Positions 11,758 through 63,749 of a DNA stretch of 64,000 bases are shown in pieces. The notes beneath the pieces are model-generated. The model had not been told where the DNA came from, made no database searches, and saw only the letters and a list, made by a program, of their open reading frames with translations. The stretch is taken from positions 87,780-151,779 of the forward strand of contig JAPLDQ010000019.1 in the NCBI GenBank assembly GCA_026391675.1. Reading direction: 5' to 3'. Position numbers and translations under genes: made by a program. This DNA comes from Bacteroidota bacterium. Its GTDB lineage: Bacteria > Bacteroidota > Bacteroidia > Bacteroidales > JACABE01. Position 1 is the first letter of the stretch; each line of letters opens with the position of its first letter.

Positions 11758-13134
11758 CTACTTTACCAATTCTTTAAAGCGTTTTCCTCTTTCTTCAAAA
11801 TTCTTAAACAAATCATAACTTGCAGCTGCAGGTGAAAGCAAACAAATGTATCCTTTCCTGGTTTTTTCTTTTGCAATTTCAATAGCCTGTTCAAAACTCT
11901 CAGCTTTAAAACATTGATTATTAATTATCCCAAGCAATTTAATCTCTGCCAAAATGCGCTCACCTGCATTTCCGATAAATATTAAATTTCCAACCCCTGA
12001 AACTTTTAAGAATTGGGCAAGTTTTTTATAATCAATCCCTCTGTCGAAACCGCCAAGTATTAATGTATCAACATTTTTCAAAGCTTTAACGGCTGCAATA
12101 CAAGCCTCAGGAATGGTTGATATGGAATCATTGTAATACTGAATTCCCTTATATGTTCCGGCATATTCCATTCTGTGTTCCAGGCCTTTAAAACTTCCAA
12201 TTCCATCAATTATAAGTTCATCCTGAACTCCGGTTAATTTACAAACATTGATAGCAGCCATAATATTCAGCAAATTATGTTCGCCTTTAAGATATCTGGG
12301 TAGATTAGTATTATAATATGGGAAAATATGCCCGTCATCATTGAAATATATAATATCATCCTTCAGAAAACAACCATTACTGACTTCATTCAGCAATGAA
12401 AATTGTATCAGCTTTGAAGGAAATTCCAATTCACCTAAAATCGTATTAATTTCTTCATTATCAGCAATACAAATAAAATAGTCATCCGGATTTTGATATT
12501 TAGCAATATTGAATTTAGCCAGTTGATAATCCTTATAAGTCTGATAGTGATCGAGATGTTCCTGAAATAAATTCAATAAAACTGAATAATGGGGAGCTTT
12601 GGTGCAATTTTCCAATTGATGTGATGACATTTCGAATACAATAAACGTATTTTCATCAATAGCATCAGCCTGATCAAAAGGTGGAAAACCCATATTACCA
12701 ACCAATAAAACATTATCAGTATGCAATTTTAAAATATAATAAATTAAATTTGATGTTGTGCTTTTTCCTTTAGTTCCTGTTATTCCTATAATCTGAGATG
12801 AATATAAATGAAGAAACAAATCAGTTTGAGAACTAATATGAAGCTTTTTAAGATATAAATCATCCAGATTTTTCAATGAAATGCCAGGCGATTTAATAAT
12901 TAAATCAAAATCGCAAAGTGAATCCAAATAGGCTTCTCCTAAAATAAATTGCAGATTTTCATTCGGTTGAAAGGTATATTTTGCAGCTAATGCAGTATCT
13001 TTATCAGCAATATAAAATTCCTGTTTAGTAAAATGTTTTCTCAAAAACTTATAACTAGCCTGCCCTTCCTTACCAAAGCCAAGAATCAGCACTTTTTTAT
13101 TTAAAATTAAATCCTGTAATACTTTGATGTTCAT
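11758..13134 (-). CDS. murD: UDP-N-acetylmuramoyl-L-alanine--glutamate ligase (MurD family; possibly the MurD2 subtype)
   Basis: N-terminal Rossmann 'ILGFGKEGQASYKFL' and Mur ligase P-loop 'GITGTKGKSTTS'. The length (458 aa) is typical. It is not in a dcw-type context and lies 1 nt from the upstream gene. Confidence 0.8.
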   Translation of the reverse strand: MNIKVLQDLILNKKVLILGFGKEGQASYKFLRKHFTKQEFYIADKDTALAAKYTFQPNENLQFILGEAYLDSLCDFDLIIKSPGISLKNLDDLYLKKLHISSQTDLFLHLYSSQIIGITGTKGKSTTSNLIYYILKLHTDNVLLVGNMGFPPFDQADAIDENTFIVFEMSSHQLENCTKAPHYSVLLNLFQEHLDHYQTYKDYQLAKFNIAKYQNPDDYFICIADNEEINTILGELEFPSKLIQFSLLNEVSNGCFLKDDIIYFNDDGHIFPYYNTNLPRYLKGEHNLLNIMAAINVCKLTGVQDELIIDGIGSFKGLEHRMEYAGTYKGIQYYNDSISTIPEACIAAVKALKNVDTLILGGFDRGIDYKKLAQFLKVSGVGNLIFIGNAGERILAEIKLLGIINNQCFKAESFEQAIEIAKEKTRKGYICLLSPAAASYDLFKNFEERGKRFKELVK

Positions 13135-13135
13135 G

Positions 13136-14512
13136 CTAAATATAAAGTTTTAGAATATTTTCGAATTTTTCTTCAAGAAAATGCTCGTCATTAAAGAGAT
13201 GCAGGTATGAATTTAAATCCAGATGACTATAATAGTTGAATTTTGCAGTAGTTTTATAATACCTGAGTAACAAAGGTAAATCATCATCACTAAGTTTAAT
13301 GATAAGCATATTTACAGCCAGATTTACTTCATCAACTGTACCAACACATTCAAAGGGTTTTACTGCTTCAATGCCTGTTAACTGCTCAAAATAAAATTTC
13401 ATATTACCCTCATTCAACAAGTCTTTTTCAAAAATTGAAATTATGGTTTTTCTTTCAATAAATGGAGAAAGAATAATGAAGGCAAATAAACATTTCGGAC
13501 AATTTCCACACCAGATATCTGTTTTGCTTCCTGCGTTACAACTTTTAAATGATGAAAAATACTTACTATATTTGGCAAACAAGGAAGCAATCTGAAGTTC
13601 ACTCAACGGTCTTAAAAAACTAAAATAATTAAAACCGGACGAAATATACTTTTCTGTATAATTTCTGAAATCAGATTCAAATTCATAAGATTTTGAATAC
13701 TGATGATTTACAGTTGAATTTTCAACGGTCGACTCATTTGCACTTGATTCATTGGATAAAGCAATATGTCTTTTGCCGGTAAAAGCAGCTGATAAAAGCG
13801 TTACAAAAGCTAATAATGCAGAAAAAGGAGTATGACCATTCAAAAAGCCTTCATTATTTAGCTGAAGCAACTGAGGATGAATACTTCTGTTGATTTCAAT
13901 AATATTTTCACGTGGATAACCTCCTATCTCAGCAGTTTCTAAACTGGCTCCCCGTGGATTTAATATAAGCGCAAGGTTTTCTGAATTCAGTAGCTTCAAT
14001 AATTCGAGTGTTACAACAGAATCTTTTCCACCACCAACTGGTATTATAACAGCATTTTCTGTCAATATGTCAGTTTTTGACAACTTACTTCCTGTATCAG
14101 CTTTTATTTCAACAAAATCATTAATTGAAGCATTTATATTATTCAGGTAAAAAAATTCGCCAAGACCGTTATAATAAATCTTATTCCAGAAATTTATCTG
14201 TTCTTCAGTCAAGCTATGGGGCTTAATAAATAATGTTTTGGGACAAGCTGCTTTCCAGTAACTGATTAATTCTATCATACCGATATGAAAAACGATATTA
14301 TCAATTAATGCTGAGTTCAGATTATTCCAATTATAAAAACTTCTGGCAGGAAAACTTAATGTTGGCCTAAAATTATATTTATCAGCTAAATTAAAATGAA
14401 ATTCAGCAAAAAATCCTTCTTCAGTAATAGTATAAGAATAGGATTCATAAGAAAAAAACAGAAATTCTTCTCTTAGTTTCAGGTATTTATCAGCATTTGA
14501 CAGATTGTTCAT
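13136..14512 (-). CDS. PP-loop-like ATP-utilising protein coupled to murD; candidate MurL-type UDP-MurNAc-L-Ala-L-Glu epimerase
   Basis: 'IIPVGGGKDSVV' resembles the SGGxDS PP-loop. There is a Cys cluster 'SCNAGSKTDIWCGNCPKC'. The stop codon (13136-13138) is 1 nt from the murD start (13134), which implies one operon. Confidence 0.55.
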   Translation of the reverse strand: MNNLSNADKYLKLREEFLFFSYESYSYTITEEGFFAEFHFNLADKYNFRPTLSFPARSFYNWNNLNSALIDNIVFHIGMIELISYWKAACPKTLFIKPHSLTEEQINFWNKIYYNGLGEFFYLNNINASINDFVEIKADTGSKLSKTDILTENAVIIPVGGGKDSVVTLELLKLLNSENLALILNPRGASLETAEIGGYPRENIIEINRSIHPQLLQLNNEGFLNGHTPFSALLAFVTLLSAAFTGKRHIALSNESSANESTVENSTVNHQYSKSYEFESDFRNYTEKYISSGFNYFSFLRPLSELQIASLFAKYSKYFSSFKSCNAGSKTDIWCGNCPKCLFAFIILSPFIERKTIISIFEKDLLNEGNMKFYFEQLTGIEAVKPFECVGTVDEVNLAVNMLIIKLSDDDLPLLLRYYKTTAKFNYYSHLDLNSYLHLFNDEHFLEEKFENILKLYI

Positions 14513-43953: not shown

Positions 43954-45027
43954 ATGAAATTTAGTCAGGGAGATAAAGTAAAATTTTTAAACACAAGTGG
44001 TGGAGGAATAGTTACCAAGATTATAAGTACTACAATGGTAAGTGTTGCTATTGAAGAAGGGTTTGAAGTACCTACATTAGTTACTGAACTGATAAAGATT
44101 GATGAAAGTTCTGCGGGGGCCCGTTTATTTAATAAGGATTTTAACGTAAACCCTAAATTTACACAAGAAGAAAACGAAATTGAAGAAGATGATGGAAAAT
44201 CAGCCTTACAAAAATCATACGGGAACAGCAATCAGGCTGCAGGCGTTTATCTTGCATTTGTGCCTCACGACCAACGCTGGTTACTTACCGGTAATCTTGA
44301 TGTTTGTTTAATCAATCATACGGAATATTACACCTTGTTCAACTTTACACTTTTCAAAGATGATGGAAAATTCTATGGTATGGATTATGATGTGATGGAA
44401 GCTGAAAGTAAAAAAATTATCACCACTATCGAAAGAGAAGACCTGGAAGACTGGAGTTCGGGCAATGTACAAATATTGTTTCATGCCGAAACAAAAGACC
44501 GTTTACTTACGCCTTTAAATGCTGATTTTAAAATAAAACCCAGCCGTTTTTACAAAGAAGAAAACTATATTGTTTCTTCCTTTTTACGTGAAAAAGCTTT
44601 GTTGTTAACCCTTGGGAATTTAATTGAAATTCCAGTCAATCAATCTCGTTTTTATAAAGCTGCTGATAAATCAACACCTGAAATACAGCTAAAAAAATCA
44701 AGCCAGTTAAAATCAGAAACTATTCTAGACAGCCATCAGATTAATCCAACTACTGCTGAAATTGACCTCCATATCGGAGAACTCGTAGAAGATTATTACC
44801 TGCTGGATAATGCAGAAATGCTGAAGATACAGCTTGATTATTTCGTTAAATGTCTTGAATCGGCATTTGTAAATAAAACACAGAAATTGATTTTTATCCA
44901 TGGTGTTGGCAATGGTGTGCTTAAAAACGAAATGATTAAAATCCTTAAAACTTATGATAATCTGCATTACTTTGATGCTTCTATGGCAAAGTACGGTGCC
45001 GGTGCGACGGAGGTTTATATAAGGTAA
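43954..45027 (+). CDS. Smr (MutS2 C-terminal-like) domain protein with a DUF2027-like N-terminal region
   Basis: The C-terminal 'EIDLHIGEL...LIFIHGVGNGVLKNEMIKIL' matches the Smr domain pattern (DLHG.../hGkG.G.L). Confidence 0.75.
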   Translation: MKFSQGDKVKFLNTSGGGIVTKIISTTMVSVAIEEGFEVPTLVTELIKIDESSAGARLFNKDFNVNPKFTQEENEIEEDDGKSALQKSYGNSNQAAGVYLAFVPHDQRWLLTGNLDVCLINHTEYYTLFNFTLFKDDGKFYGMDYDVMEAESKKIITTIEREDLEDWSSGNVQILFHAETKDRLLTPLNADFKIKPSRFYKEENYIVSSFLREKALLLTLGNLIEIPVNQSRFYKAADKSTPEIQLKKSSQLKSETILDSHQINPTTAEIDLHIGELVEDYYLLDNAEMLKIQLDYFVKCLESAFVNKTQKLIFIHGVGNGVLKNEMIKILKTYDNLHYFDASMAKYGAGATEVYIR

Positions 45028-45300: not shown

Positions 45301-45670
45301 CGAAACAACAGTTCGTTCTATCGCTGTCCCGCCATAGGCGGGAGAGAGGAAAGTCCGGGCAACATAGAGCAAGCATACTTCCTAACGGGAAGGTCCCTTC
45401 TTTGAGGGGAACAGCAAGTGCCACAGAAAATAACCGTCCCGCCTTGTGCGGGATAAGGGTGAAAATGTGAGGTAAGAGCTCACGTTCTGCTTTGGCAACA
45501 AGGCAGAAGGGTAAACCTTATGCGTTGAAAGACCAAATATACCGGATGTTAAGGGCTGCTCGTCCGATGCCGGGGGGTAGGTCGTTAGAGGCTACCGGCG
45601 ACGATAGTCCCAGATAAATGATAGAAGTCCCTTTGGGAAACAGAACCCGGCTTACAGAACTGTTGTTTTA
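45301..45670 (+). ncRNA. rnpB: RNase P RNA, bacterial type A
   Basis: Universally conserved P4 strands are present: 'GAGGAAAGTCCGGGC' (5') and 'ACAGAACCCGGCTTA' (3'). The terminal P1 pairing is AAACAACAGTTC (45303-45314) with GAACTGTTGTTT (45657-45668). Internal 'GGTAAGAGCTCAC' and 'GGGTAAACC' elements are present. ORFs called here (45150-45470 +, 45158-45424 -) are artefacts. Confidence 0.92.
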
Positions 45671-52637: not shown

Positions 52638-53507
52638 TTAAGATTTATAGCAATCCAAAACCACAAAAGGCACCTCCATTTGTAAACCGCCATTAGTTTC
52701 AGCTATTTCATTCAGCTTATTCTCACATATTGACATTATTTCATCCGCATTATCAGTGGATTCCATTATTTTCATCCAATGATTTTTAAATGCAGTTTTA
52801 ATAAAATGATGTTGCAGAAATGCAGTTCCGTCCAGAAACTTCATCACATAATTTTCTTCATAAATATGACGGATGCTGAAGCCGGCATGCTCAATCATTT
52901 CAATCTGTTGCTTTATGCTTTTCCTTTTTTGACTGATATGCTGAATGATAGCTTCAATCACTGAATAATAGCCTTCTTCGAGTAAAAGTTCTGTCAGGCA
53001 TTCGTAAAAGAGCGAAAATGTTCCCGGCAGGTTGGCTGTAATGACTAATTGCGCATTTTTTCCTGCGGTCCTGTATGCTTCTTTTAAAACAAGATCAGCA
53101 TTTTCTGTATTATTGATGCCATTATTTGAAACAATAAGATGGAAGATTTCATCATCGAAGGGCATTTCTTCGGCTTTACAATCGAAACAGCGAATGTTTT
53201 TCAACTGCATAGCTGCTGCTTTTGCTTTTAAACGGGAAATGGCAGCTTCTGAAGGATCTATACCATAACAAGTGGATGATAAACCCAGACGCTGAGAAAT
53301 TTCCAGCAGGGGGAATCCTGCACCACAGCCTATATCGAGTACATTTATATTCTTTTTATATTGTAACACATCCAGTAACTTCAGGCCGAAGGGTGCTGAC
53401 CACAATGATAATTCATCAGTTAATCCAGACATTATTTGTGTATTTTCAGCGATGCTTTCGCTGTTGAATACATTTATATCATTTAGATTTGGCTCTTGTG
53501 TTTGCAC
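52638..53507 (-). CDS. Class I SAM-dependent methyltransferase
   Basis: SAM motif I 'VLDIGCGAGFPLLE' and post-I 'YGIDPSE'. GTG start at 53507. A perfect TAGTTTTG -7 box lies on the minus strand at 53531-53524. Confidence 0.8.
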   Translation of the reverse strand: MQTQEPNLNDINVFNSESIAENTQIMSGLTDELSLWSAPFGLKLLDVLQYKKNINVLDIGCGAGFPLLEISQRLGLSSTCYGIDPSEAAISRLKAKAAAMQLKNIRCFDCKAEEMPFDDEIFHLIVSNNGINNTENADLVLKEAYRTAGKNAQLVITANLPGTFSLFYECLTELLLEEGYYSVIEAIIQHISQKRKSIKQQIEMIEHAGFSIRHIYEENYVMKFLDGTAFLQHHFIKTAFKNHWMKIMESTDNADEIMSICENKLNEIAETNGGLQMEVPFVVLDCYKS

Positions 53508-53867
53508 GTTAACATTTTTTTTACAAAACTACATAATCTATTGTTATCAAATAAACATTTGCTGTTCAATGACGCATTTTTTTTGTTAAATGACGAAAAT
53601 AAGGTATTGAACAATGATTAAATTCCGGTAAAATCAAAATTAGCTTAGTAGTTTGTGCCACAATTGAAGTGAGACTGTGAGAAATGTTTTCAGAAATTTA
53701 GTATTTATAACTGCTTTACTTGATAAGTTTTAATTCCAGCATCTTGGACAACCAATATTTTTATTAAAATGCACTTAAAGGTCTTAAAAAACTAATAGAT
53801 TGATATCGCTTTCATTTTACTATTATATAAATTAAATTTTATTAAAATCATTTCTAATTTATAAATA

Positions 53868-54116
53868 GTGCTGGTGCATTAACTTTTTATTTATATTTAT
53901 AACACGTTGATAACAAAATATATATAAGTATTCTTTGATTTTTTGAATTGAATTGACTTTTAGTTTAGCATTAAATTAAAGTGCAAGATTATGAATTCAG
54001 TAAGTATTTTTTGTTCAGCTATTAGTTTAAATAGAACTACTTACAAAAATACAAGTCAATTAAAATTTCAGAGAACAATAGGATATATTTAACTATTAAT
54101 TTTAACGCACCAGCAG
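53868..54116. other. Nested inverted repeats defining a ~250-nt potential long hairpin or structured RNA within an ORF-free AT-rich leader
   Basis: Outer arm TGCTGGTGCATTAA (53869-53882) pairs with TTAACGCACCAGCA (54102-54115) at 13 of 14 positions. Middle arm AATTGACTT (53951-53959) pairs with AAGTCAATT (54053-54061), 9 of 9. Inner arm GTAAGTA (54000-54006) pairs with TACTTAC (54038-54044), 7 of 7. Confidence 0.45.
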
Positions 54117-54495
54117 TAATTTATAAAAACAAATAACTTAAAAAATAATTATGAAATTAATCCTTCTAATTTTATTTTATTAATTTTGGATTGATAAAAT
54201 TATTATTAATTCTTATTTGATATAATGGATCTAACAAATAAACTAATAAATATTATTTATTTCTATTAGATTTTGAAATAAGTATTTAAAAAAAATAGAA
54301 ATTTAACAATAATAAAGACATTACTATTAATTAATTACAGTTACTCTAAGGGAAATAATCTATATTAAAGTTTTTATTTATTATTTTTTTGTATATTATT
54401 AAGTTAATTAAATTAAGATTTAATATCTAAAATTGTAATTTTATTAATTTTAATCTACAAAATGTATTAATATTAAAAAAATCTAATTTTATAAC

Positions 54496-54503
54496 TATTT
54501 TTG
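54496..54503 (+). promoter_or_regulatory. Candidate -7 promoter box (TAnnTTTG) for the ATPase/HNH-like operon
   Basis: 'TATTTTTG' ends 13 nt upstream of the ATG at 54517. Confidence 0.4.
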
Positions 54504-54516
54504 TAAAAAACATGAT

Positions 54517-55905
54517 ATGAAAATTCATAAAATAAGTCTAAATAATTATAATCAATTTAATAATTTAGAAATTGATTTAACTTATCCTAAAGGACATAAA
54601 AAAGAGGGAAAACCTTTGGATAAAATTTGTTTTATTGGACAAAGTGGTACAGGAAAAACAAGTCTATTAAGATTAATAAAGTACTTTATTACTAATAAAA
54701 GAGGAATAGGGACAGGGGTTTCATTAGATCCAATTGAAAAAGATAAAGTTAAAATGATAATGAGTTTTGATAAATTTTTATATGAAAAATTTGTTGAACC
54801 AAAATCTTTTCTAATTCATAATATAACAGACAAAAGCGATGATTCTTGGTTTTCTGAATGGCAAATAGCATTATCAAATCATTTCTCAACATATAAACCG
54901 ATATTAATTAATTTCCCAACTGAAAGATTAGTAAATAAGAATGAAGAGGTTATAAATGATGAAATTATCAAAAATTCTGACGAAAAGAAGAATAAAAGAA
55001 TTAAATATTTAGAAGACTTAAAACCTGGAGAAATAGTTGATTTTGCATTTGAAGATAGCTCAAAGGCATGGGATTTAGTTCTAAGTGATATAAAAAAACA
55101 TCAATCAATAGATTTAGAATGGAGAAGTAAAATTTCAGAAATTATTTTAAAAACAAACTCAGAACCGTCTGATTTTGAAAAGATAAATAGAGAATTTCAA
55201 AATTGGCTAACTAAAAACCCCAATCCACTAGATTTACTAGCAAAAGAAATAAATAAAATTCTTATAGAGTTTGGTATAAAAATCAAAACTGATATTGATA
55301 AAGAATCAATATTCCACATAGGAAGTATTCTATTGCAGACTTTAGATGGAAAAACAATAGATAGGGATTTTTGGAGTACAGGAACAAAGCAAATAATTGA
55401 CACAGCAATCCCATTAATTGAAATAAAACCTAAAAATGCAATAATTCTTATTGATGAACCAGAACGTTCATTATATCCAAATCTTCAACAAAGAATAATT
55501 GATTTTTATACAAATCTTGGAAATAATTGCCAATTCTTTTTTGCAACTCATTCACCAATTATAGCTTCAGCATTTGATCCTTGGGAAATAATTGAATTAA
55601 AATTTGATGAAAGTAAAACAAATGTTATTCAAGAAAAGAATTATCTAAATGAGCGTCATATCGATAATTATACTGTTTTTCCCAAATATTTAAAATGGGA
55701 TGGTATTTTAATGAAACTTTTTGATTTAACTGATGAAGGGAATAATAAATATAGACAAGAAGAATTACAGAAAGTTGCATCTTTAAAAAATGAATTAAAT
55801 GAATTAAAAAATAAAAGAAAAAATAAAGGTGCTGCTTTTGAGAAAAAATTAAATGAATTTATTAAACTGAAAAACAAAGTTGGATGGGATGAAAAAACTG
55901 AATAA
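54517..55905 (+). CDS. ptuA: ABC/AAA_21-type P-loop ATPase, PtuA-like (Septu-type defence ATPase candidate)
   Basis: N-terminal 'IHKISLNNYNQFNNLEIDL' (SMC/RecF-like head start). Walker A 'GQSGTGKTS'. Walker B plus D-loop 'ILIDEPERSLYP'. 'FFFATHSPIIAS' is the ATHSP signature of AAA_21/OLD-like ATPases. C-terminal coiled coil. It overlaps the next gene by 17 nt. Confidence 0.65.
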   Translation: MKIHKISLNNYNQFNNLEIDLTYPKGHKKEGKPLDKICFIGQSGTGKTSLLRLIKYFITNKRGIGTGVSLDPIEKDKVKMIMSFDKFLYEKFVEPKSFLIHNITDKSDDSWFSEWQIALSNHFSTYKPILINFPTERLVNKNEEVINDEIIKNSDEKKNKRIKYLEDLKPGEIVDFAFEDSSKAWDLVLSDIKKHQSIDLEWRSKISEIILKTNSEPSDFEKINREFQNWLTKNPNPLDLLAKEINKILIEFGIKIKTDIDKESIFHIGSILLQTLDGKTIDRDFWSTGTKQIIDTAIPLIEIKPKNAIILIDEPERSLYPNLQQRIIDFYTNLGNNCQFFFATHSPIIASAFDPWEIIELKFDESKTNVIQEKNYLNERHIDNYTVFPKYLKWDGILMKLFDLTDEGNNKYRQEELQKVASLKNELNELKNKRKNKGAAFEKKLNEFIKLKNKVGWDEKTE

Positions 55906-56527
55906 ATCGTTACAATTATCCACAAAATTTAGTTATTGGTATTCAAAAAATAAAACTAAAGATTACAAATCTACCAATGATCCTTTTTATTATGACGTTT
56001 TATATGAGTTATTAATAATTCAAGAGGGTTTATGTGCTTATACTGAAATCAGAATGATTGATGAAAAATCATTAGAAACATTAAAATCAGGATTTAATGA
56101 CGGTAAGTATTCTATTGATTTTAGACCTCAAACACCTGCACAAATTGAACATTTTTCAAAATTAAAGAAGAAATCAAATGGATGGGATTGGAATAATTTA
56201 TTTGCAGTTTATATTGATATAAATCACAAAAAAAACTATTTAGAGGATAGGTATGGAGTTTCATCTATTTTAAAACCCGATAATCCAAGTTATGATCCTT
56301 TAAAATATTTAATGTACGATTCTTCTAATCATATATTTTTCCCAAATTCAAAATTAAAAAAACCATTACAAGATAAAGTTTCAAAAATGATAATAGTTTT
56401 AGGAATAAATAATGATTTTATTAAAATGCAGAGAAGAGAATATATTAATTCAATAAAAGAGAAAGAATATTTTTTGGAAAAGAAATTGGTTATCAATCAG
56501 TTTATTACTGCTTACAATATGATTTAA
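55889..56527 (+). CDS. ptuB: TIGR02646/PtuB-like HNH-family protein with degenerate zinc ligands
   Basis: The HNH core pattern is 'GLCAYTE' (canonical C-A-Y-C-E), 'QIEHFSKL' (I-E-H-F), 'WDWNNLFAV' and 'INHKKN'. The tail 'ILKPDNP...LKYLMYDSSNHIFFPNS...VLGINNDFIKMQRREYI' matches the family's C-terminal '...LNLN..L...R'. The ATG at 55889 is preferred over the TTG at 55880. Confidence 0.6.
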   Translation: MKKLNKSLQLSTKFSYWYSKNKTKDYKSTNDPFYYDVLYELLIIQEGLCAYTEIRMIDEKSLETLKSGFNDGKYSIDFRPQTPAQIEHFSKLKKKSNGWDWNNLFAVYIDINHKKNYLEDRYGVSSILKPDNPSYDPLKYLMYDSSNHIFFPNSKLKKPLQDKVSKMIIVLGINNDFIKMQRREYINSIKEKEYFLEKKLVINQFITAYNMI

Positions 56528-56568
56528 AATATTTTTTACGTATTTATTAATATACTCCCAAATAATAC

Positions 56569-56760
56569 CTAATCATCTCTTTCAGGTCTTTCATCAACAG
56601 GTCTTCCATGAATTGGCCAATCATTTTGGCTTTTCTTTATTTCATTATCACGTCGAGCTTGGTCTTCCCTTTGCCTTCTTTCTTGTTCCTGTCGTTGTCT
56701 TTCTTGTTCAGCTCTTCTTCTTTGTTCTTCTTCAATTCTTTTTTGATCTTCATTACTCAT
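56569..56760 (-). CDS. 63-aa highly charged Glu/Arg/Gln-rich (ER/K single-helix-like) peptide
   Basis: 'RIEEEQRRRAEQERQRQEQERRQREDQARRD'. It lies 12 nt downstream of the 3-TM gene on the same strand. The low-complexity composition means a chance ORF cannot be excluded. Confidence 0.45.
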   Translation of the reverse strand: MSNEDQKRIEEEQRRRAEQERQRQEQERRQREDQARRDNEIKKSQNDWPIHGRPVDERPERDD

Positions 56761-56772
56761 AACTTAAAATAT

Positions 56773-57240
56773 TTAAAGTGAAATAATCATAAAAACAACT
56801 AATATAATAATTGCAAAAATTAATAACAATAAACTTAATCCATTTAAAATATGAGTAAGTTTATTATAAATACATTTTTTACATTCGATTTCGATTTGAT
56901 CTTCTTTTAATTCTTTACCTTTTTCTTTTTTAATAATATTTTTTATTAATTGTACCTCAAATTTATTCGCATAATATGATGTAACCTGTGAAAGTAAATT
57001 TGACACTATTGATAAAGTAAATAATATCCATGAAATTTTTAACATTAAAAAATTCACATTAGGTTTACTTAACAAAATATCTTTTACAAAGCCCATTGAT
57101 AGGGCTAAACCACCACTAGATATCGAAATAATTAATATATCAAATCGATTAAGTGAATATTTAAGATTATCTTTTGTTGCATCTAAATGGGCTTCTAAAT
57201 TAACAATATATTGACTATTTTTATTTGATATTTCTTTCAT
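56773..57240 (-). CDS. Small 3-TM membrane protein (SLATT/DUF4231-like topology; possible membrane effector)
   Basis: N-terminal soluble helix, TM1 'FDILIISISSGGLALSMGFV', TM2 'ISWILFTLSIVSNLLSQVTSY', a charged helix, and a C-terminal TM 'GLSLLLLIFAIIILVVFMIISL'. The similarity to SLATT is topological only. Confidence 0.6.
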   Translation of the reverse strand: MKEISNKNSQYIVNLEAHLDATKDNLKYSLNRFDILIISISSGGLALSMGFVKDILLSKPNVNFLMLKISWILFTLSIVSNLLSQVTSYYANKFEVQLIKNIIKKEKGKELKEDQIEIECKKCIYNKLTHILNGLSLLLLIFAIIILVVFMIISL

Positions 57241-57409
57241 ATTTACAAAATCTATTATAAATTTTCAAATCAATAACAAAAATAATACTTATTTATAGCA
57301 ATAATTAAAATGTTGATAACTTATATTATTAATTTTTTGCTATAAACAAGAATTATTGATATTTAGATAAGTTTTTTAAGAATGTTTTGAATTGTTAAAG
57401 TAAAAAAAT

Positions 57410-57886
57410 ATGCATTTTCATACTATTTTTTTATACTTTTGTCTAGTGAAAAGGATAACATCTTATATCAGTTGCATTGTCATCATTATTTTATTCCTGG
57501 CTTCTTCCACAGGAATCAGCTTTGTTATTCACCACTGCTCCAATGATCATTCCGAAGAAATACGTTTTTTTGCCATTGATTACCAGTGCGCTCACGAAAA
57601 AATTACCGATGACTGTGCAAAAGATAACTATGGCCAGCATCATTGTGATAAACACAGCAACCATCACTGCTGTAAAAACACCAGAGGCTATTTTAGAATT
57701 GCTGATGAATATACTGTTTCTAAAAGTGACATAAAAATCAATATTCCGGTTTTTGTTAATACTGCTGTAGTTGTTTCTCCTGCTTCAATTCATTCTGATT
57801 TCTTTACCTATAATAATATTTGCAGTCAGCACCCCTCCTCTTCAGGAGTGAGTATTTATTGCATGAATTCCCAGTTTCTTATCTGA
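57410..57886 (+). CDS. His/Cys-rich membrane-anchored protein upstream of the metal efflux genes (HYC_CC_PP-like putative metal-binding protein)
   Basis: N-terminal TM, then 'VIHHCSNDHSEE', 'CAHEKITDDCAKDNYGQHHCDKHSNHHCCKN'. Its position directly upstream of czcA is typical for such proteins in Bacteroidota. Confidence 0.6.
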   Translation: MHFHTIFLYFCLVKRITSYISCIVIIILFLASSTGISFVIHHCSNDHSEEIRFFAIDYQCAHEKITDDCAKDNYGQHHCDKHSNHHCCKNTRGYFRIADEYTVSKSDIKINIPVFVNTAVVVSPASIHSDFFTYNNICSQHPSSSGVSIYCMNSQFLI

Positions 57887-57905
57887 TTTTATACTGTTTT
57901 TGCCA

Positions 57906-58061
57906 CTAAGGCACTAAGACACAAAGGAAATTAAATAAAAATCTTTTTGTCTTAAATGTATTATTTAGCTAATGCTTTTATTAATAATAAGACTTAGTGC
58001 CTTTGTGGCAAGACCAAATTTGTGTCTTTTTGGCAAAAAACTTAGTGTCTTAGTGCCTTAG
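57906..58061. repeat. Palindromic REP-like element in the czc leader
   Basis: CTAAGGCACTAAGACAC (57906-57922) and GTGTCTTAGTGCCTTAG (58045-58061) are perfect 17-bp inverted repeats. The interior carries related 'CTTAGTGCCTTTGTGGCA' and 'TTTGTGTCTTTTTGGCA' units. Confidence 0.85.
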
Positions 58062-58079
58062 TTGCTAATAATAAAAATC

Positions 58080-61000
58080 ATGATAGAACATATTATAAAA
58101 TTTTCAATCAAAAATAAATTCGTTATCGGATTATTCATTGTGGCTTTAATCGGATGGGGAAGCTATTCGCTGATCCGTCTGCCCATTGATGCCATACCCG
58201 ATATTACCAATAACCAGGTACAGGTAATTGCACTGGCTCCTTCGCTGGCGGTGCAGGAAGTAGAAAGTTTCATTACTGCTCCAATAGAGGTGTCTGTTGC
58301 CAATATACCCAATATTGTGGAGCTGCGTTCTATTTCGCGACTTGGTTTATCGGTAGTTACCATTGTTTTTAAAGATAATGTTGACCTATACTGGGCGCGG
58401 CAACAGTTAAACGAACGTTTAAAGGAAGCCGAAGAAGCCATCCCTCCCGGACTGGCCAAGATTGAGCTTGCCCCTGTTTCGTCAGGATTGGGTGAGATAT
58501 TCCAATACCGCCTGGCAGTAGCAAAAGGTTATGAAGACAAGTATAATCCAATGGAACTGCGTACCATACAGGACTGGATTGTACGCCGCGAAATGCTGGG
58601 AACTCCGGGCATTGCTGATATCAACAGCTATGGTGGTTTTGTCAAGCAATATGAGATAGCCGTAAATCCTGAAAGACTCAGAGGGATGAACCTTAGTCTT
58701 ACAGATATCTTTACCGCACTCGAAAAGAACAATGAGAATACAGGCAGTGCCTATATTGATAAAAAACCCAATGCCTATTTTATACGCGGTATCGGTTTGG
58801 TAAAAACACTGGCTGATATCGAAAAGATAGTGGTTAAAAACAATACATCGGGGATTCCTATATTAATCCGTGATATTGCCAAAGTGGAATATGGCAGTGC
58901 TACCCGTTACGGCGCTTTTGTGGTTGACACATCAGAAGCTGTGGGCGGTGTGGTTATGATGCTGAAAGGAGCCAATGCCCATGAAGTGATAGAAGATGTT
59001 CAGGAACGCATTAAAGCCATACAAAAATCATTACCAAAAGCTGTAAGAATTGAACCTTATTTAAACCGTTCCGACCTTGTTGGACGTGCCATTGGTACGG
59101 TTTCAAAAAACCTTATTGAAGGGGCTTTAATAGTAATTTTTATTCTTGTTCTTCTGCTGGGAAATATGAGGGCCGGTCTCATTGTGGCTTCTGTGATTCC
59201 GCTTTCCATGCTCTTTGCTATTTCACTGATGAATCTGTTCGGAGTATCGGGTAATCTGATGAGCCTGGGTGCCATTGATTTCGGATTAATTGTAGACGGT
59301 GCTGTTATCATCGTCGAAAGCGTGGTGCACAGGATATCGAAAAGCAAGACACATCACTTAGGTATTGAACGGCTTTCGCAACAGCAAATGGATGAGAATG
59401 TATTTGAATCAGCCAAACGCATGATGAGTTCAGCTACTTTCGGACAAATCATCATCCTTATCGTTTATCTTCCTATTATTGCGCTGGTAGGCATTGAAGG
59501 AAAGATGTTCCGCCCGATGGCCCAGGTAGTGGCTTTTGCACTGCTGGGTGCTGCTATACTTTCCCTGACTTATGTTCCTATGGCTTCCGCACTATTTCTG
59601 AGTAAAAAGACTGTATCTAAAGCAAATTTATCGGACAAACTGATGGAATTGATTACTAAAGCTTTTAATCCTGCAATTGCTTATGCATTAAAACATAAGA
59701 TGCAGGTTTCATTGGCAGCTATAGTATTATTTATTCTGAGTCTTTTGCTGTTCACACAATTAGGAGGCGAATTTATTCCTCAGCTCGAAGAAGGAGATCT
59801 GGCAGCAGGTGTTATGACACTACAGGGCGGGTCATTGTCAAATACAGTTGATCAGGTAAAAAAAGCAAATAAGATATTACTTGACAATTTCCCTGAAGTT
59901 AAACATGCAGTCTGTAAAATAGGTGCAGGAGAAATCCCTACTGACCCCACTCCTATGGAAACCGGTGATTATATTATTACACTCAAGGATAAAAGTGAAT
60001 GGACTTCTGCTAAAAGCCGTGAAGAACTGGTAGCAAAAATGGAAGATAAACTGGTAACACTGGCAGGGGTTAAATTTGAATTCCAGCAACCTATACAAAT
60101 GCGATTTAACGAATTGATGACAGGGTCAAAACAGGATGTAGCCATTAAAATATTTGGCGATAATCTTGGGACACTGGCTGATAAAGCAGCAGAAGTAGAA
60201 AAAATCATTCAGAAAGTTGAAGGAGTAGAAGATATTAATGTGGAGAAACTCACAGGACTGGCTCAGGTTCAGATTAATTTCAACCGCGACAGGCTTGCAC
60301 AATACGGACTTTCTGTGGATGATGGCAGTAAAATATTACGTTCTGCTTTTGCAGGGAGTCAGGCAGGTGTGGTTTATGATGAAGAAAAACGATTTGCACT
60401 GGTAGTGCGTCTGGATAAAGATTACCGCCAGAGTATAAAAGATGTAAAAAGCCTAACCCTTGCCCTGCCCAATGGCGGACAAATTCCTTTTGAACAGGTG
60501 GCGGATATCAGCATACAATCCGGACCGGCTCAGGTTTCAAGAGAAGATACCAAACGAAGGATAACCATTGGATTTAATGTCCGAATGCGGGATGTGGCAA
60601 GTGTTATTGAAGATGTTAAAACCAAAATTGATCAGCAGATTATATTACCCAGTGGATATTATGTATCCTATGGCGGACAGTTCAAAAATCTGGAAGCTGC
60701 CAGAAACAGACTGGCCATTGCTGTTCCTGTGGCTTTATTATTGATTTTTGTATTACTATATTTTACTTTTCATTCCGTTAAACAATCCCTGTTAATTTAT
60801 ACTGCAGTTCCCATGTCAGCCATAGGCGGTATTATCGCACTCTGGCTTAGAGGAATGAATTTTTCCATATCAGCCGGTGTTGGTTTTATTGCTTTGTTTG
60901 GTGTGGCGGTACTCAATGGCATCGTATTGATTGCCGAATTTAACCGGCTGGAAAAAGAAGGTATCACAGATATCAACGAACGCGTGCTTAAAGGATTGAA

Positions 61001-62468
61001 AACCCGTCTGCGTCCTGTAATCATGACGGCTGCCGTTGCTTCGCTCGGATTTTTACCCATGGCATTATCAACTTCAGCCGGTGCCGAAGTACAGAAACCT
61101 TTGGCAACTGTTGTAATTGGTGGGCTTATCACAGCAACATTACTTACATTGCTTATACTTCCTGTTTTCTATATTATTTTCTCCAACTATAAATTCAGCA
61201 TTTCATTTAAAAGCAAAACATCCAAAGTAATTAGCATAGTTATATTAGTATTTATGACAACTTGCTGTTTTATGAATGTAAAGGCACAGGAAATAAAGTA
61301 TATCAATTTGCATGATGCGATACAAATGGCGCTGGACAGGAATTTAAATCTCCGTTCTTCCGCTTATGCCGTTGACGAACAAAAAGCGATGAAAGCTGCT
61401 AGCTGGGATATCAGCAAAACCAATATTGAACTGCAATACGGGCAATTTAATTCTTATGAAAAAGACAATGGGTTAACAGTATCCCAGTCCTTTGCATTTC
61501 CAACGGTATATATGATGCAAAGCAAACTGGCCAATGCCAGGGTAAAAAGCAGTGAATGGCAGTTGAAAAGTGCACAACTTGAAATTACCACTCAGCTTAA
61601 GCAACTTTACTGGCAATTGGCTTATCTGTTCTCAAAACAAAAATTACTGATCTATCAGGACAGTCTTTTTTCAAGTTTCCAACGGGCAGCTGAATTAAGG
61701 GCTAATTCGGGTGAAACCATTAAACTTGAAATGATTACGGCACGTTCGCAAAGTATGGAAGTTAAGAACCAGCGTTATCAGGTAAATGCTGATATAGGCA
61801 TTTATTTACGTAAACTGAGGACATTACTGAATACTGATATTTTAGTTTATCCGGCTGATATCATACTTAAACGGATTAATTACACAGTAGTTCCCTTAAC
61901 TTCTGAAATAGCCAATAATCCATCTCTGGCTTATATGCAGCAACAGATAGAGGTTTCGCAAAAAGAAAAACAAGTCGAAGTAAACCGCAGCTTACCCGAT
62001 CTAAGTATTGGCTATTTCAGCCAAACCATAAGGGGTACGCAGGAGGTAAATGGCCTTCCCCGTAGCTTCGGTGCCGGTGACCGTTTTACCGGCGTACAAT
62101 TGGGTATCTCCATTCCGCTTTGGTTTATGCCTTATAAAGCAAAAATAAAGTCGGCTCAGATTCAGGAGAATATGGCCAGGACAGATGCTGAAAATTACAA
62201 GAATACACTATCAAATAATTATCTTTCCTTATTGGATGAATATGCAAAATATCTCGGGAGTATTAATTATTACGAACAGCAGGCAGTTCCTGAAGCTGAG
62301 TTAATCATTGAACAAGCCAGCCAGAGTTATAAAGCCGGTGCAATGGATTACCTGGAATATATACTGAGTCTGAACCGTGCGCTGATTATTAAACAAAATC
62401 AACTGGATGCCATTAACAACTATAATCAAACCGTTATCAACATTGAGTTTGTTTGCGGGAAGTTGTAA
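58080..62468 (+). CDS. czcA: CusA/CzcA-family heavy-metal efflux RND pump fused in frame to a TolC/CzcC-like outer-membrane factor
   Basis: 'MIEHIIKFSIKNKF' is a typical CzcA start (the ATG at 58080 is preferred to the TTG at 58062). The RND region has 12 TM segments and runs to about aa 1040. 'KSKTSKVISIVILVFMTTCCFMNVKAQE' is signal-peptide-like, beginning near 61210. 'LHDAIQMALDRNLNLRSS...' opens a TolC-type region with two-repeat helical content running to the stop at 62468. Confidence 0.85.
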   Translation: MIEHIIKFSIKNKFVIGLFIVALIGWGSYSLIRLPIDAIPDITNNQVQVIALAPSLAVQEVESFITAPIEVSVANIPNIVELRSISRLGLSVVTIVFKDNVDLYWARQQLNERLKEAEEAIPPGLAKIELAPVSSGLGEIFQYRLAVAKGYEDKYNPMELRTIQDWIVRREMLGTPGIADINSYGGFVKQYEIAVNPERLRGMNLSLTDIFTALEKNNENTGSAYIDKKPNAYFIRGIGLVKTLADIEKIVVKNNTSGIPILIRDIAKVEYGSATRYGAFVVDTSEAVGGVVMMLKGANAHEVIEDVQERIKAIQKSLPKAVRIEPYLNRSDLVGRAIGTVSKNLIEGALIVIFILVLLLGNMRAGLIVASVIPLSMLFAISLMNLFGVSGNLMSLGAIDFGLIVDGAVIIVESVVHRISKSKTHHLGIERLSQQQMDENVFESAKRMMSSATFGQIIILIVYLPIIALVGIEGKMFRPMAQVVAFALLGAAILSLTYVPMASALFLSKKTVSKANLSDKLMELITKAFNPAIAYALKHKMQVSLAAIVLFILSLLLFTQLGGEFIPQLEEGDLAAGVMTLQGGSLSNTVDQVKKANKILLDNFPEVKHAVCKIGAGEIPTDPTPMETGDYIITLKDKSEWTSAKSREELVAKMEDKLVTLAGVKFEFQQPIQMRFNELMTGSKQDVAIKIFGDNLGTLADKAAEVEKIIQKVEGVEDINVEKLTGLAQVQINFNRDRLAQYGLSVDDGSKILRSAFAGSQAGVVYDEEKRFALVVRLDKDYRQSIKDVKSLTLALPNGGQIPFEQVADISIQSGPAQVSREDTKRRITIGFNVRMRDVASVIEDVKTKIDQQIILPSGYYVSYGGQFKNLEAARNRLAIAVPVALLLIFVLLYFTFHSVKQSLLIYTAVPMSAIGGIIALWLRGMNFSISAGVGFIALFGVAVLNGIVLIAEFNRLEKEGITDINERVLKGLKTRLRPVIMTAAVASLGFLPMALSTSAGAEVQKPLATVVIGGLITATLLTLLILPVFYIIFSNYKFSISFKSKTSKVISIVILVFMTTCCFMNVKAQEIKYINLHDAIQMALDRNLNLRSSAYAVDEQKAMKAASWDISKTNIELQYGQFNSYEKDNGLTVSQSFAFPTVYMMQSKLANARVKSSEWQLKSAQLEITTQLKQLYWQLAYLFSKQKLLIYQDSLFSSFQRAAELRANSGETIKLEMITARSQSMEVKNQRYQVNADIGIYLRKLRTLLNTDILVYPADIILKRINYTVVPLTSEIANNPSLAYMQQQIEVSQKEKQVEVNRSLPDLSIGYFSQTIRGTQEVNGLPRSFGAGDRFTGVQLGISIPLWFMPYKAKIKSAQIQENMARTDAENYKNTLSNNYLSLLDEYAKYLGSINYYEQQAVPEAELIIEQASQSYKAGAMDYLEYILSLNRALIIKQNQLDAINNYNQTVINIEFVCGKL

Positions 62469-62471
62469 TGT

Positions 62472-62527
62472 GCTGATACGGTAATGCGGTGATATGCTAA
62501 TTTGGTGATTTTGTGATTTTGTGATTT
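62472..62527. repeat. Degenerate octamer tandem array (GSTRATNN x7, ending in GTGATTTT GTGATTTT GTGATTT)
   Basis: GCTGATAC GGTAATGC GGTGATAT GCTAATTT GGTGATTT TGTGATTT TGTGATTT was read directly. It begins 3 nt after the czcA-fusion stop. Confidence 0.8.
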
Positions 62528-62564
62528 AAAATTGAATTAGAAAAAAAACAATAAAATTAAAGAT

Positions 62565-63749
62565 ATGTCAAAGAAAAATATAATAATTATAATGATGTTT
62601 TTAAGCTTCATTTTAATAATAGGAGCATGCAAAAACGGGGCTAAGAACAATAAAGAAGCTGAAAACAAAGAAGTTATTCCTGAAAATATTGTCGAGATGC
62701 GGGATGATCAGATTAAACTGGCGGATATTCAATTAAGTTCAATCGAATTACGTTCATTAAGCGGTACCATTAAGGTGAATGGGCTGGTAGCTGTTCCGCC
62801 TCAGAATTTCGCTACCATTTCTGCACCTATGGGTGGATTTGTCAGAAGTTGCAGTCTGATTCCTGGTAATACGGTTAAAAAAGGACAGGTAGTTGCAATC
62901 ATTGAAAATCAGGAATTTATTGATATCCAGCAAAATTATCTGGAAGCTAAAAACAAGCTAGAGTTTGCTGAAAATGACTATAAAAGGCATAATGACCTGT
63001 ATAAAAACAATGTGTATTCACAGCAAAATGTACAGCAGGTGACAACAGATTATAAAAATCTTAAGGCTCAGGTAAAATCGCTTACACAAAAACTTGCCCT
63101 TATCGGTATTAATGCTGCTAGTCTGAACGAGGATAATATCAGCCGCGAGGTAAAGCTGTATTCACCCTTTGATGGTTTTATAAAAACGGTGAATGTAAAT
63201 ATCGGCAAATATGTAACGCCTTCGGATGCCATGTTTGAAATTGTAAACACCAGCCATCTGTTTCTTGAGCTAACACTGTTTGAAAAGGATGCCGATAAAG
63301 TTGAAATTGCACAGAAAATAAAATTTATGATCAATAACGAAACAGAGCAGCATGATGCTGTTATCACACAGACTGGTAAGGCCATTAATCCCGACAAAAC
63401 ATTTAAAGTATATGCCAATGTAACGGATGAATGTATGAATATCATACCGGGTATGTATGTAAATGCCATTATAGAAGCTACATCCAATAAAGTAAGTGCT
63501 TTACCATCAGAAGCCATTGTTAGTTTTGATGATAAGGATTATATCTTTGTTTTTGAAAAAAATAAAACAGAAGATGGCAGGGCATTCAGCGAATACCGTA
63601 TGGTTGAAGTTCAAAAAGGGGTCAGTGAAAACGGCTATACAGCCATCATTTTACCAAAAGGAATGGATATGAATACGACTAAAGTTGTAATCAAAGGAGC
63701 TTATAATCTGCTTTCGGCTAAGAAAAACGCCGGTGATATGGCTTGTTAA
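62565..63749 (+). CDS. czcB: Efflux RND periplasmic adaptor (membrane fusion protein, CzcB/CusB-like)
   Basis: Lipobox 'IIGACKN'. It has the biotinyl-lipoyl-like, hairpin and beta-barrel pattern ('V.AP.GG.V......GN.VKKGQVVA.IE', 'L.SPFDG.I...NV..G.YV'). Confidence 0.8.
   Translation: MSKKNIIIIMMFLSFILIIGACKNGAKNNKEAENKEVIPENIVEMRDDQIKLADIQLSSIELRSLSGTIKVNGLVAVPPQNFATISAPMGGFVRSCSLIPGNTVKKGQVVAIIENQEFIDIQQNYLEAKNKLEFAENDYKRHNDLYKNNVYSQQNVQQVTTDYKNLKAQVKSLTQKLALIGINAASLNEDNISREVKLYSPFDGFIKTVNVNIGKYVTPSDAMFEIVNTSHLFLELTLFEKDADKVEIAQKIKFMINNETEQHDAVITQTGKAINPDKTFKVYANVTDECMNIIPGMYVNAIIEATSNKVSALPSEAIVSFDDKDYIFVFEKNKTEDGRAFSEYRMVEVQKGVSENGYTAIILPKGMDMNTTKVVIKGAYNLLSAKKNAGDMAC

Follow-up and report, generated by a model that had tools for sequence, protein, structure and literature searches.

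A contig of an uncultured member of the Bacteroidota (GenBank assembly GCA_026391675.1, contig JAPLDQ010000019.1) carries, within the 64,000-nucleotide stretch analysed here (positions 87,780 to 151,779 of the forward strand, hereafter the window, in whose numbering all positions are given), two overlapping genes that encode the ATPase PtuA and the HNH nuclease PtuB of the Septu anti-phage defence system. Taken together, the evidence makes it very probable that this cassette is a standalone (type I) Septu that was acquired horizontally. The gene pair had been pointed out in a preliminary description, made from the sequence alone, as an overlapping ATPase and HNH-like pair at 54517–56527 sharing 17 nt, and both the coordinates and the overlap match the sequence, where two co-oriented open reading frames (ORFs) are found on the forward strand (Table 1). 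The frame of gene 2 opens at a TTG at 55880 and, because the Met encoded by the ATG at 55889 is the start in all 21 of 21 homologues, the gene is taken to begin there. The same start had been chosen before, while the length then given, 213 aa, had counted the stop codon and is corrected to 212 aa. In DNA of 25% GC, where stop codons have a frequency of ∼0.088 per codon, stretches of 462 and 212 codons free of stops would arise with probabilities of ∼3e-19 and ∼3e-9, respectively, so that neither ORF is a chance product, and the homologues of each protein align over its full length (100% coverage). The overlap of the two genes would probably allow their translational coupling.

Gene 1 is ptuA. 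Its product is deposited as MCX6231213.1, an 'ATP-binding protein'. The best PADLOC model is PDLC00274 (PtuA, E = 4.4e-65, residues 1–368) and 17 further PtuA models are among the 25 best PADLOC matches listed, while Pfam places the protein in the AAA_15/AAA_21 clade, as had been anticipated, with both families above their cut-offs (AAA_15, E = 3e-22 and 80 bits, cut-off 32; AAA_21, E = 1e-16 and 62 bits, cut-off 27). The NCBIfam model NF041760 (PtuA) gives a score of 45.8 against a cut-off of 500, which is below its curated boundary. All three motifs that had been read from gene 1 are present, namely GQSGTGKTS (residues 41–49), which forms the Walker A (G41–S49, with K47), ILIDEPERSLYP (309–320), with the Walker B residues D313–E314, and ATHSP (343–347), with H345 of the H-loop, and there is in addition a signature-like motif, W286-S-T-G-T290. 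In 48 PtuA homologues, down to 40% identity, G41, G44, G46, K47, W286-S-T-G289, D313, E314 and E316 of the Walker B and T344-H345-S-P347 of the H-loop are invariant. A profile of these 48 homologues matches the entire ATPase core of retron Ec78 PtuA (E = 4e-11) and also the PtuA of E. coli Septu (8ee4, E = 2e-5), and its match to AriA is confined to the Walker B region. The residue alignment to Ec78 PtuA pairs D313/E314 with D395/E396 and W286-S-T-G-T290 with L357-S-D-G-Q361, mutation of either of which abolishes the function of the retron-linked PtuAB (PMC12819146, PMC12673091), and Walker A and Walker B mutants also lose immunity in Septu EcB88 (PMC13096335). The AlphaFold (AF2) model of PtuA, which has a predicted local distance difference test score (pLDDT) of 83 and a predicted template modelling score (pTM) of 0.79, matches retron PtuA, E. 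coli Septu PtuA (8ee4, 8eea, 8sux) and AriA in the Protein Data Bank (PDB), and it is the three E. coli Septu entries that give the highest target-normalised template modelling (TM) scores and the lowest root-mean-square deviation. The C-terminal coiled coil that had been noticed in gene 1 corresponds in this model to a three-helix extension at residues 394–455 (helices 394–401, 410–432 and 439–455).

Gene 2 is ptuB, and its product is listed as a 'hypothetical protein' (MCX6231214.1). Its PADLOC matches are HNH_I-A (E = 1.5e-18) and 17 PtuB models, the best of them PtuB1 (E = 1.1e-13, residues 1–204), and its only two NCBIfam matches are NF041761 (PtuB, E = 8e-15, residues 1–193) and TIGR02646 (E = 1.4e-6, below the cut-off), in agreement with the TIGR02646/PtuB pattern that had been recognised in it. 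The motifs on which that recognition was based are all found: CAYTE (49–53), IEHF (86–89), WNNL (101–104), NHKK (112–115) and LGINNDF..MQR (171–182). In an alignment of 22 PtuB sequences the invariant residues are C49-A-Y-T-E53, E87-H88-F89, W99, N103, N112, K115 and I-L-K-P-D at 127–131. A single-sequence phmmer search of PtuB against the PDB returns no match, and hence profiles are needed at this level; with the PtuB family profiles every solved PtuB chain is reached (E = 2e-6 to 4e-4), in one case by an unbroken alignment over residues 28–193 to the retron I-A PtuB 9n69_F. H88 is aligned in this way with the catalytic H57 of Ec78/Eco7 PtuB, where the H57A mutation abolishes both defence and toxicity (PMC12819146, PMC12673091). 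The AF2 model of PtuB (pLDDT 85, pTM 0.79) gives the same answer when searched against the PDB with Foldseek, as the ten best matches are all PtuB chains, the first being 8eea_G of E. coli Septu (E = 6e-6), followed by colicin and pyocin HNH domains only at E-values above 0.7. Its C-terminal domain (CTD), residues 158–211, consists of three helices (158–171, 176–196 and 206–211), and in characterised PtuB the three-helix CTD is the part that binds PtuA (PMC12673091, PMC12819146).

The nuclease motif of PtuB is conserved far beyond the close homologues. When 1.84 billion cluster representatives are searched exhaustively with HMMER, 272 relatives are obtained at E ≤ 1e-3, 99 of them at E ≤ 1e-30, and 110 full-length representatives together with the protein of the window make up a set of 111 sequences. 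H88, N103 and N112 are invariant in all 111, position 87 is Glu or Asp in all 111, and the H-15-N-9-N spacing is kept in 96. The resulting [E/D]-H...N...N pattern resembles the D-H...N...N pattern of the Cas9 HNH domain, and conservation of such strictness argues for PtuB being an active nuclease.

The two genes recur together in other genomes. Ten other distinct loci were retrieved (L001 to L017 in our numbering), of which L014/L015 lies on a contig that ends just after ptuA, leaving nine in which both genes can be read. In all nine ptuA is directly upstream of ptuB, with an overlap of 17 nt (L001, L004 and L016) or 14 nt (L010 to L013 and L017) or a gap of 5 nt (L006), and none of the ten loci contains a reverse transcriptase (RT). 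The neighbours vary from locus to locus and include MurC/RuvX with ParDE, a histidine kinase with methylmalonyl-CoA mutase, TatC with NFACT, DUF6261/ThiF, a type I restriction-modification methylase fragment, and recombinase- and FtsK-like genes. Because the identities of PtuA and PtuB to the proteins of the window drop in parallel (64/67, 62/58, 49/43, 44/40, 35/43 and 24/35%), the pair evolves and moves as a unit. In the set of species-representative genomes there are five loci, all in metagenome-assembled genomes (MAGs), four from Bacteroidota and one from Saccharibacteria. The latter (L013, 4602–6675 of a Candidatus Saccharibacteria MAG) carries ptuAB of the same subclade, at 35%/43% identity, in a bacterium of the candidate phyla radiation and is surrounded by recombinase-like, FtsK-like and small Cys-rich ORFs, which looks like a mobile-element context and transfer across phyla. 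Two further loci, L001 (8852–9383) and L016 (2540–2584), have AIRS and SufBD downstream in common, and only in L001 do ParD/ParE lie between ptuB and AIRS; this suggests a recurrent integration hot spot.

The cassette is also set apart from its surroundings by composition. The GC contents of ptuA and ptuB are 25% and 23%, and their GC contents at third codon positions (GC3) are 12.7% and 17.4% compared with 29–36% in the resident genes, and the cassette is therefore regarded as foreign DNA among housekeeping genes. The low-GC island in which it lies is bounded by a class I S-adenosylmethionine (SAM) methyltransferase and a czc-type metal-efflux operon, with PBP1, an M48 peptidase, an SDR protein, a glycoside hydrolase and the RNase P RNA farther upstream. 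It is a solitary chromosomal insertion and not part of a multi-system defence island. A search of the island boundaries for direct or inverted repeats gave none that are convincing, only short AT-rich chance matches.

The one unusual point of the cassette is that its PtuB belongs to a divergent subclade that lacks the zinc finger and is missed by standard annotation. In the PtuB of Retron-Eco7 defence depends on a zinc finger formed by C43, C46, C78 and C90 (PMC12673091), positions that align with C49, T52, Y108 and I111 here, so that only the first ligand is kept, and since C49 is the single cysteine in the whole protein an Eco7-type zinc finger cannot be formed. When clustered at 50% identity, the subclade amounts to about 100 clusters, whose members come mainly from uncultured Bacteroidota and other candidate lineages. 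C-A-Y-[T/S]-E replaces C-A-Y-C-E in 110 of its 111 representatives, and in 108 an insert of 27–37 residues, with a near-invariant Gly-Lys within it, separates CAY[T/S]E from [E/D]HF; in the protein of the window the insert spans approximately residues 54–86 and is modelled as a helix and a beta-hairpin (pLDDT ∼80–88). Other members of the subclade often have Cys at window positions 44 (76/111) and 57 (50/111), both of which are Ile in the window's own clade, and His in an N-terminal column of the alignment (74/111), and judging from these alignment columns the two cysteines, the histidine and C49 may make up an alternative metal site. Ten of the 111 representatives have a single-Cys PtuB. It is unlikely, although worth bearing in mind, that the insert, which on this reading has taken the place of the zinc finger of retron-type PtuB, is a substrate-recognition element and that the clade has another nucleic acid target or trigger than characterised Septu; if so, the clade would differ in target or trigger from both the DNA-nicking and the tRNA-Tyr-cleaving Septu known so far. 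The insert and the Cys pattern are variations within a family that is already very diverse, and the PADLOC models detect both genes.

Since the best single label of gene 2 is a retron model, the standalone system was tested explicitly against the possibility that the pair is the effector module of a type I-A retron ('type II Septu') and has been orphaned, the RT and non-coding RNA (ncRNA) being lost or located elsewhere. Such an origin would fit HNH_I-A as the top PADLOC match of PtuB, the best NCBIfam matches, which are the retron Ec78 PtuA and PtuB equivalogs, the retron chains that are the best sequence-level PDB matches, and the 1-kb non-coding stretch upstream of ptuA. The best hidden Markov model label of PtuB says little, however, because retron and standalone systems are reported to be mixed with each other in the PtuB tree (PMC12819146), and failure to reach the cut-offs of NF041760 and NF041761 is expected of a standalone system, as both are Ec78 equivalogs. 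The upstream stretch contains no ORF longer than 45 aa, is unstructured when folded as RNA (z = −1.2) and shows no conservation, only trivial AT-rich matches, when set against the corresponding upstream sequence of 17 related loci. No RT-like ORF is present in the window by the ORF list and a crude RT-motif scan, and Rfam searches of the window in both E-value and gathering modes find no retron RNA, the only Rfam RNA being the chromosomal RNase P RNA; nor is there a tRNA gene in the window. Retron PtuA has gained an N-terminal extension (NTE, residues 2–65), which contacts the RT and the ncRNA, as well as a helical flap and loops that bind multicopy single-stranded DNA (msDNA), none of which is found in standalone PtuA (PMC12819146). 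The PtuA of the window lacks the extension, as is seen from an offset of ∼52 residues in the profile alignment (profile position 38 corresponds to residue 90 of Ec78, and position 2 to residue 62 of Ec83), from the Walker A at residue 41 compared with ∼92 in Ec78, and from the length of 462 aa compared with 542–552 aa. With neither RT nor ncRNA, ten related loci free of RT, no NTE in PtuA and no zinc finger in PtuB, which Retron-Eco7 requires (PMC12673091), the pair is assigned to type I Septu, and derivation from a retron is very improbable.

The remaining alternatives concern the role, the integrity and the family of the pair. That true PtuAB biochemistry serves mainly for selfish addiction or for competition between elements, in a toxin-antitoxin-like or anti-plasmid manner, would accord with the foreign composition of the cassette, its movement between unrelated sites, the ParDE toxin-antitoxin pair that adjoins it in L001, the recombinase- and FtsK-like genes in L013 and the toxicity of unrestrained retron-linked PtuAB (PMC12819146, PMC12673091). 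This is nevertheless improbable, as protection from phage is seen with all tested Septu (PMC13096335, PMC12640716), standalone PtuAB is reportedly kept under tight control until infection (PMC12819146), and a tblastn search for PtuB in 72,556 plasmids and 50,697 phage records retrieves no copy. A decaying or non-functional remnant might be suspected from the isolated insertion, the extreme AT bias, the unusually long leader and the lack in PtuB of the cysteines at 44 and 57 that many subfamily members keep, but this too can hardly be the case, given that both ORFs are full length relative to all homologues, all catalytic and nucleotide-binding residues are intact, the overlap is preserved and a single cysteine is shared with the other single-Cys representatives. 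Least probable of all is another ATPase and nuclease pair of the same ABC-ATPase superfamily, such as PARIS, AbiL or one of the Gabija/OLD-like systems. Gene 1 does match AriA (6.6e-22), AbiLi (7.9e-20), GajA (3.6e-12) and ATPase-Toprim_I-B models in PADLOC, and AriA chains are among the structural matches of PtuA, but these PADLOC matches fall behind the best PtuA model by at least 40 orders of magnitude, and that to AbiLi is partial (profile positions 50–277 of 326). As the preliminary description rightly held, the choice between Septu, PARIS, AbiL and retron-associated systems depends on the partner domain, which is here that of an HNH PtuB: the only models that gene 2 matches are those of PtuB and HNH_I-A, with no AriB (PADLOC, E ≤ 1), AbiLii or Toprim match, and its fold matches PtuB alone before colicin-type HNH domains are reached. 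The reading of the pair as a two-gene Septu, an ATPase followed by an HNH nuclease, is thus borne out by PADLOC, profile and fold searches alike.

Several observations weigh against the assignment to a functional standalone Septu. PtuB has no match in Pfam, and in NCBIfam it falls short of both curated cut-offs (TIGR02646, 28.4 against 52.15; NF041761, 55.2 against 150), which accounts for its label in GenBank. At the sequence level the profile alignment to E. coli Septu PtuB (8ee7) covers the C-terminal domain only, and the solved PtuB chains share just 15–22% identity with the protein of the window, at TM scores of 0.41–0.59. In the signature motif of PtuA, T290 takes the place of Q361 of Ec78, a Gln required for toxicity, and this substitution leaves ATP turnover by PtuA uncertain; in the standalone E. 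coli Septu PtuA the corresponding residue is Leu (PMC12819146). Surrounded by housekeeping genes, the solitary cassette has no support from a defence island. Finally, the substrate and the trigger cannot be derived from the characterised PtuAB systems, since these differ among themselves (DNA nicking, single-stranded DNA, tRNA-Tyr).

Characterised homologues provide a model of how the standalone Septu of the window might act, and the PtuA–PtuB complex, its inhibition by ATP, its trigger, its substrate and its anti-phage outcome are all envisaged here by analogy with them. PtuA, an ABC/Rad50-like ATPase, would oligomerise, and its C-terminal helical extension would bind the three-helix CTD of PtuB in a helical bundle; both putative interface elements are present in the monomer models, as the helices at 394–455 of PtuA and at 158–211 of PtuB. 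In the uninfected cell the nucleotide-bound PtuA scaffold would hold PtuB inactive, a phage protein and/or falling ATP would signal infection such that the nuclease is released or activated, and cleavage of a nucleic acid, either DNA or a tRNA, by the HNH nuclease would then stop phage replication. The E. coli system (EcSeptu) is described as a 6:2 inflammasome-like complex, known for EcSeptu only, with an ATP-inhibited nuclease that nicks plasmid DNA (Li et al. 2024, as cited in PMC12640716 and PMC12819146), while Septu EcB88 cleaves tRNA-Tyr in its variable loop and requires the Walker A/B residues of PtuA and the H/N residues of PtuB (PMC13096335). The equivalents of these PtuA and PtuB residues in the window are K47, D313, H88 and N103.

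The features of the locus are collected in Table 1. The ptuA leader is 1,009 bp in length with a GC content of 18.7%, compared with leaders of 68–490 bp in related cassettes, and may be an AT-rich stretch left behind by the insertion event; it shows no enrichment of sigma-70-like sites (45, against 36.6 ± 6.8 in shuffled sequences). TAnnTTTG is the consensus of the Bacteroidota −7 promoter element, and a candidate for it stands just before ptuA. The candidate terminator is the sole terminator-like site in 53400–57500, where shuffled sequences average 0.4.

Table 1. Positions in the window of the ptuA-ptuB cassette and of the features around it.
Feature	Position	Strand	Evidence or remarks
ptuA, ABC-type (AAA_15/AAA_21) ATPase, 462 aa	54517–55905	+	PADLOC, Pfam, invariant motifs, AF2 model
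ptuB, HNH (beta-beta-alpha-Me) nuclease, 212 aa	55889–56527	+	PADLOC, NCBIfam, profiles, AF2/Foldseek
ptuA-ptuB overlap	55889–55905	+	17 nt, read from the sequence; same 17 nt in L001, L004 and L016
Low-GC island with the cassette	53508–57409		13–25% GC, except the 63-aa ORF at 37% GC
ptuA leader	53508–54516		no ORF longer than 45 aa
Candidate promoter TATTTTTG	54496–54503	+	fits TAnnTTTG, as does one other site in the 1-kb leader; lies 14 nt upstream of the ptuA ATG
Candidate operon terminator (hairpin and T-run)	56615–56641	+	88 nt past the ptuB stop codon; weak evidence
63-aa ORF	56569–56760	−	inside the low-GC island
155-aa ORF	56773–57240	−	inside the low-GC island; 20.7% GC
Metal-efflux operon	57410–63749		czc-type
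SAM methyltransferase	52638–53507	−	resident GC
RNase P RNA, class A	45305–45670	+	Rfam, 272 bits
DUF2027 and Smr protein	43954–45027	+	two domains in one protein

Two further ORFs lie on the minus strand within the island, one for a Glu/Arg/Gln-rich peptide of 63 aa and the other for a protein of 155 aa with three hydrophobic segments. Searches of Pfam, NCBIfam, PADLOC and PHROGs assign neither to a family, a collection of 15 billion proteins contains neither exact sequence, and they do not lie beside ptuAB at other loci. A third Septu component was considered for them and rejected on these grounds, and they may have arrived as cargo with the same insertion or not be genes at all. A link to the MADS system was likewise considered and rejected. 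The methyltransferase upstream of the island matches PADLOC mad2 (1e-18) and gene 1 is weakly similar to MAD3, but the mad2 match is to the generic SAM-binding domain only, the methyltransferase gene is on the other strand and has resident GC, and its best NCBIfam matches are arsenite/UbiE-type methyltransferases, so that it is probably unrelated to defence. On the other side of the island, the metal-efflux operon begins with a His/Cys-rich HYC_CC_PP protein, which precedes an unusual 1,468-aa fusion of a complete CzcA/AcrB-type resistance-nodulation-division (RND) pump (residues 11–1040) with a C-terminal outer-membrane-factor domain of the OEP/TolC-like kind (1283–1463), followed by an RND adaptor subunit. 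The RNase P RNA confirms the chromosomal context and explains a local rise in GC. Elsewhere in the window, one protein has DUF2027 and, at its C terminus, an Smr (MutS2-type nuclease) domain, and two pairs of ORFs of equal length look like tandem paralogues (6610–9048 and 9300–11738, 812 aa each, plus strand; 11758–13134 and 13136–14512, 458 aa each, minus strand).

The cassette is an ordinary two-gene Septu of known type, and its value lies mainly in annotation, in that a functional-looking defence nuclease is carried in GenBank as a hypothetical protein and its ATPase under a generic name. It adds an example of Septu from uncultured Bacteroidota, where none is characterised in the literature examined. 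The existing defence-finder models already recognise the system and no new mechanistic question is opened by it; the subclade does indicate that the zinc finger essential in Eco7 is dispensable in a whole group of PtuB proteins, which helps to define the minimal PtuB nuclease.

Among known systems the closest in organisation are E. coli PtuAB and Septu EcB88, which likewise have two genes in the order ptuA-ptuB and no RT. E. coli Septu shares with the system of the window a PtuA of ∼460 aa (462 aa here and 465 aa in 8ee4) that has no N-terminal extension, a residue other than Gln in the signature motif (Thr here and Leu in EcSeptu), and a PtuB that consists of an HNH nuclease and a helical CTD, 8eea_G being the best structural match. 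From H to N the spacing is 15 in the window, compared with 16 in EcB88 (H75/N91). The two systems differ in that sequence identity to E. coli Septu (8EE4, 8EE7, 8EEA and 8SUX) is only ∼15–16%, that the PtuB of the window has the subfamily-wide insert and that its host is an uncultured member of the Bacteroidota. The effectors of type I-A retrons (Eco7/Ec78 and Eco4/Ec83; 9kjx, 9l7p, 9nnb, 9n69, 9e8z and 9vh1) are homologous in the PtuA core and in PtuB (E = 1e-5 to 3e-6), and they share the catalytic residues of both proteins, the three-helix CTD of PtuB and the C-terminal helices of PtuA. Unlike them, the system of the window has no RT or ncRNA, its PtuA is ∼90 residues shorter through the lack of the NTE, and its PtuB keeps one of four zinc ligands and has ∼30 extra residues in the insert. 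PARIS (AriA/AriB) and AbiL (AbiLi/AbiLii) have in common with it a related ABC-type ATPase scaffold and the logic of an ATPase that restrains a nuclease, but the partner here is the HNH protein PtuB rather than a Toprim/DUF4435 protein.

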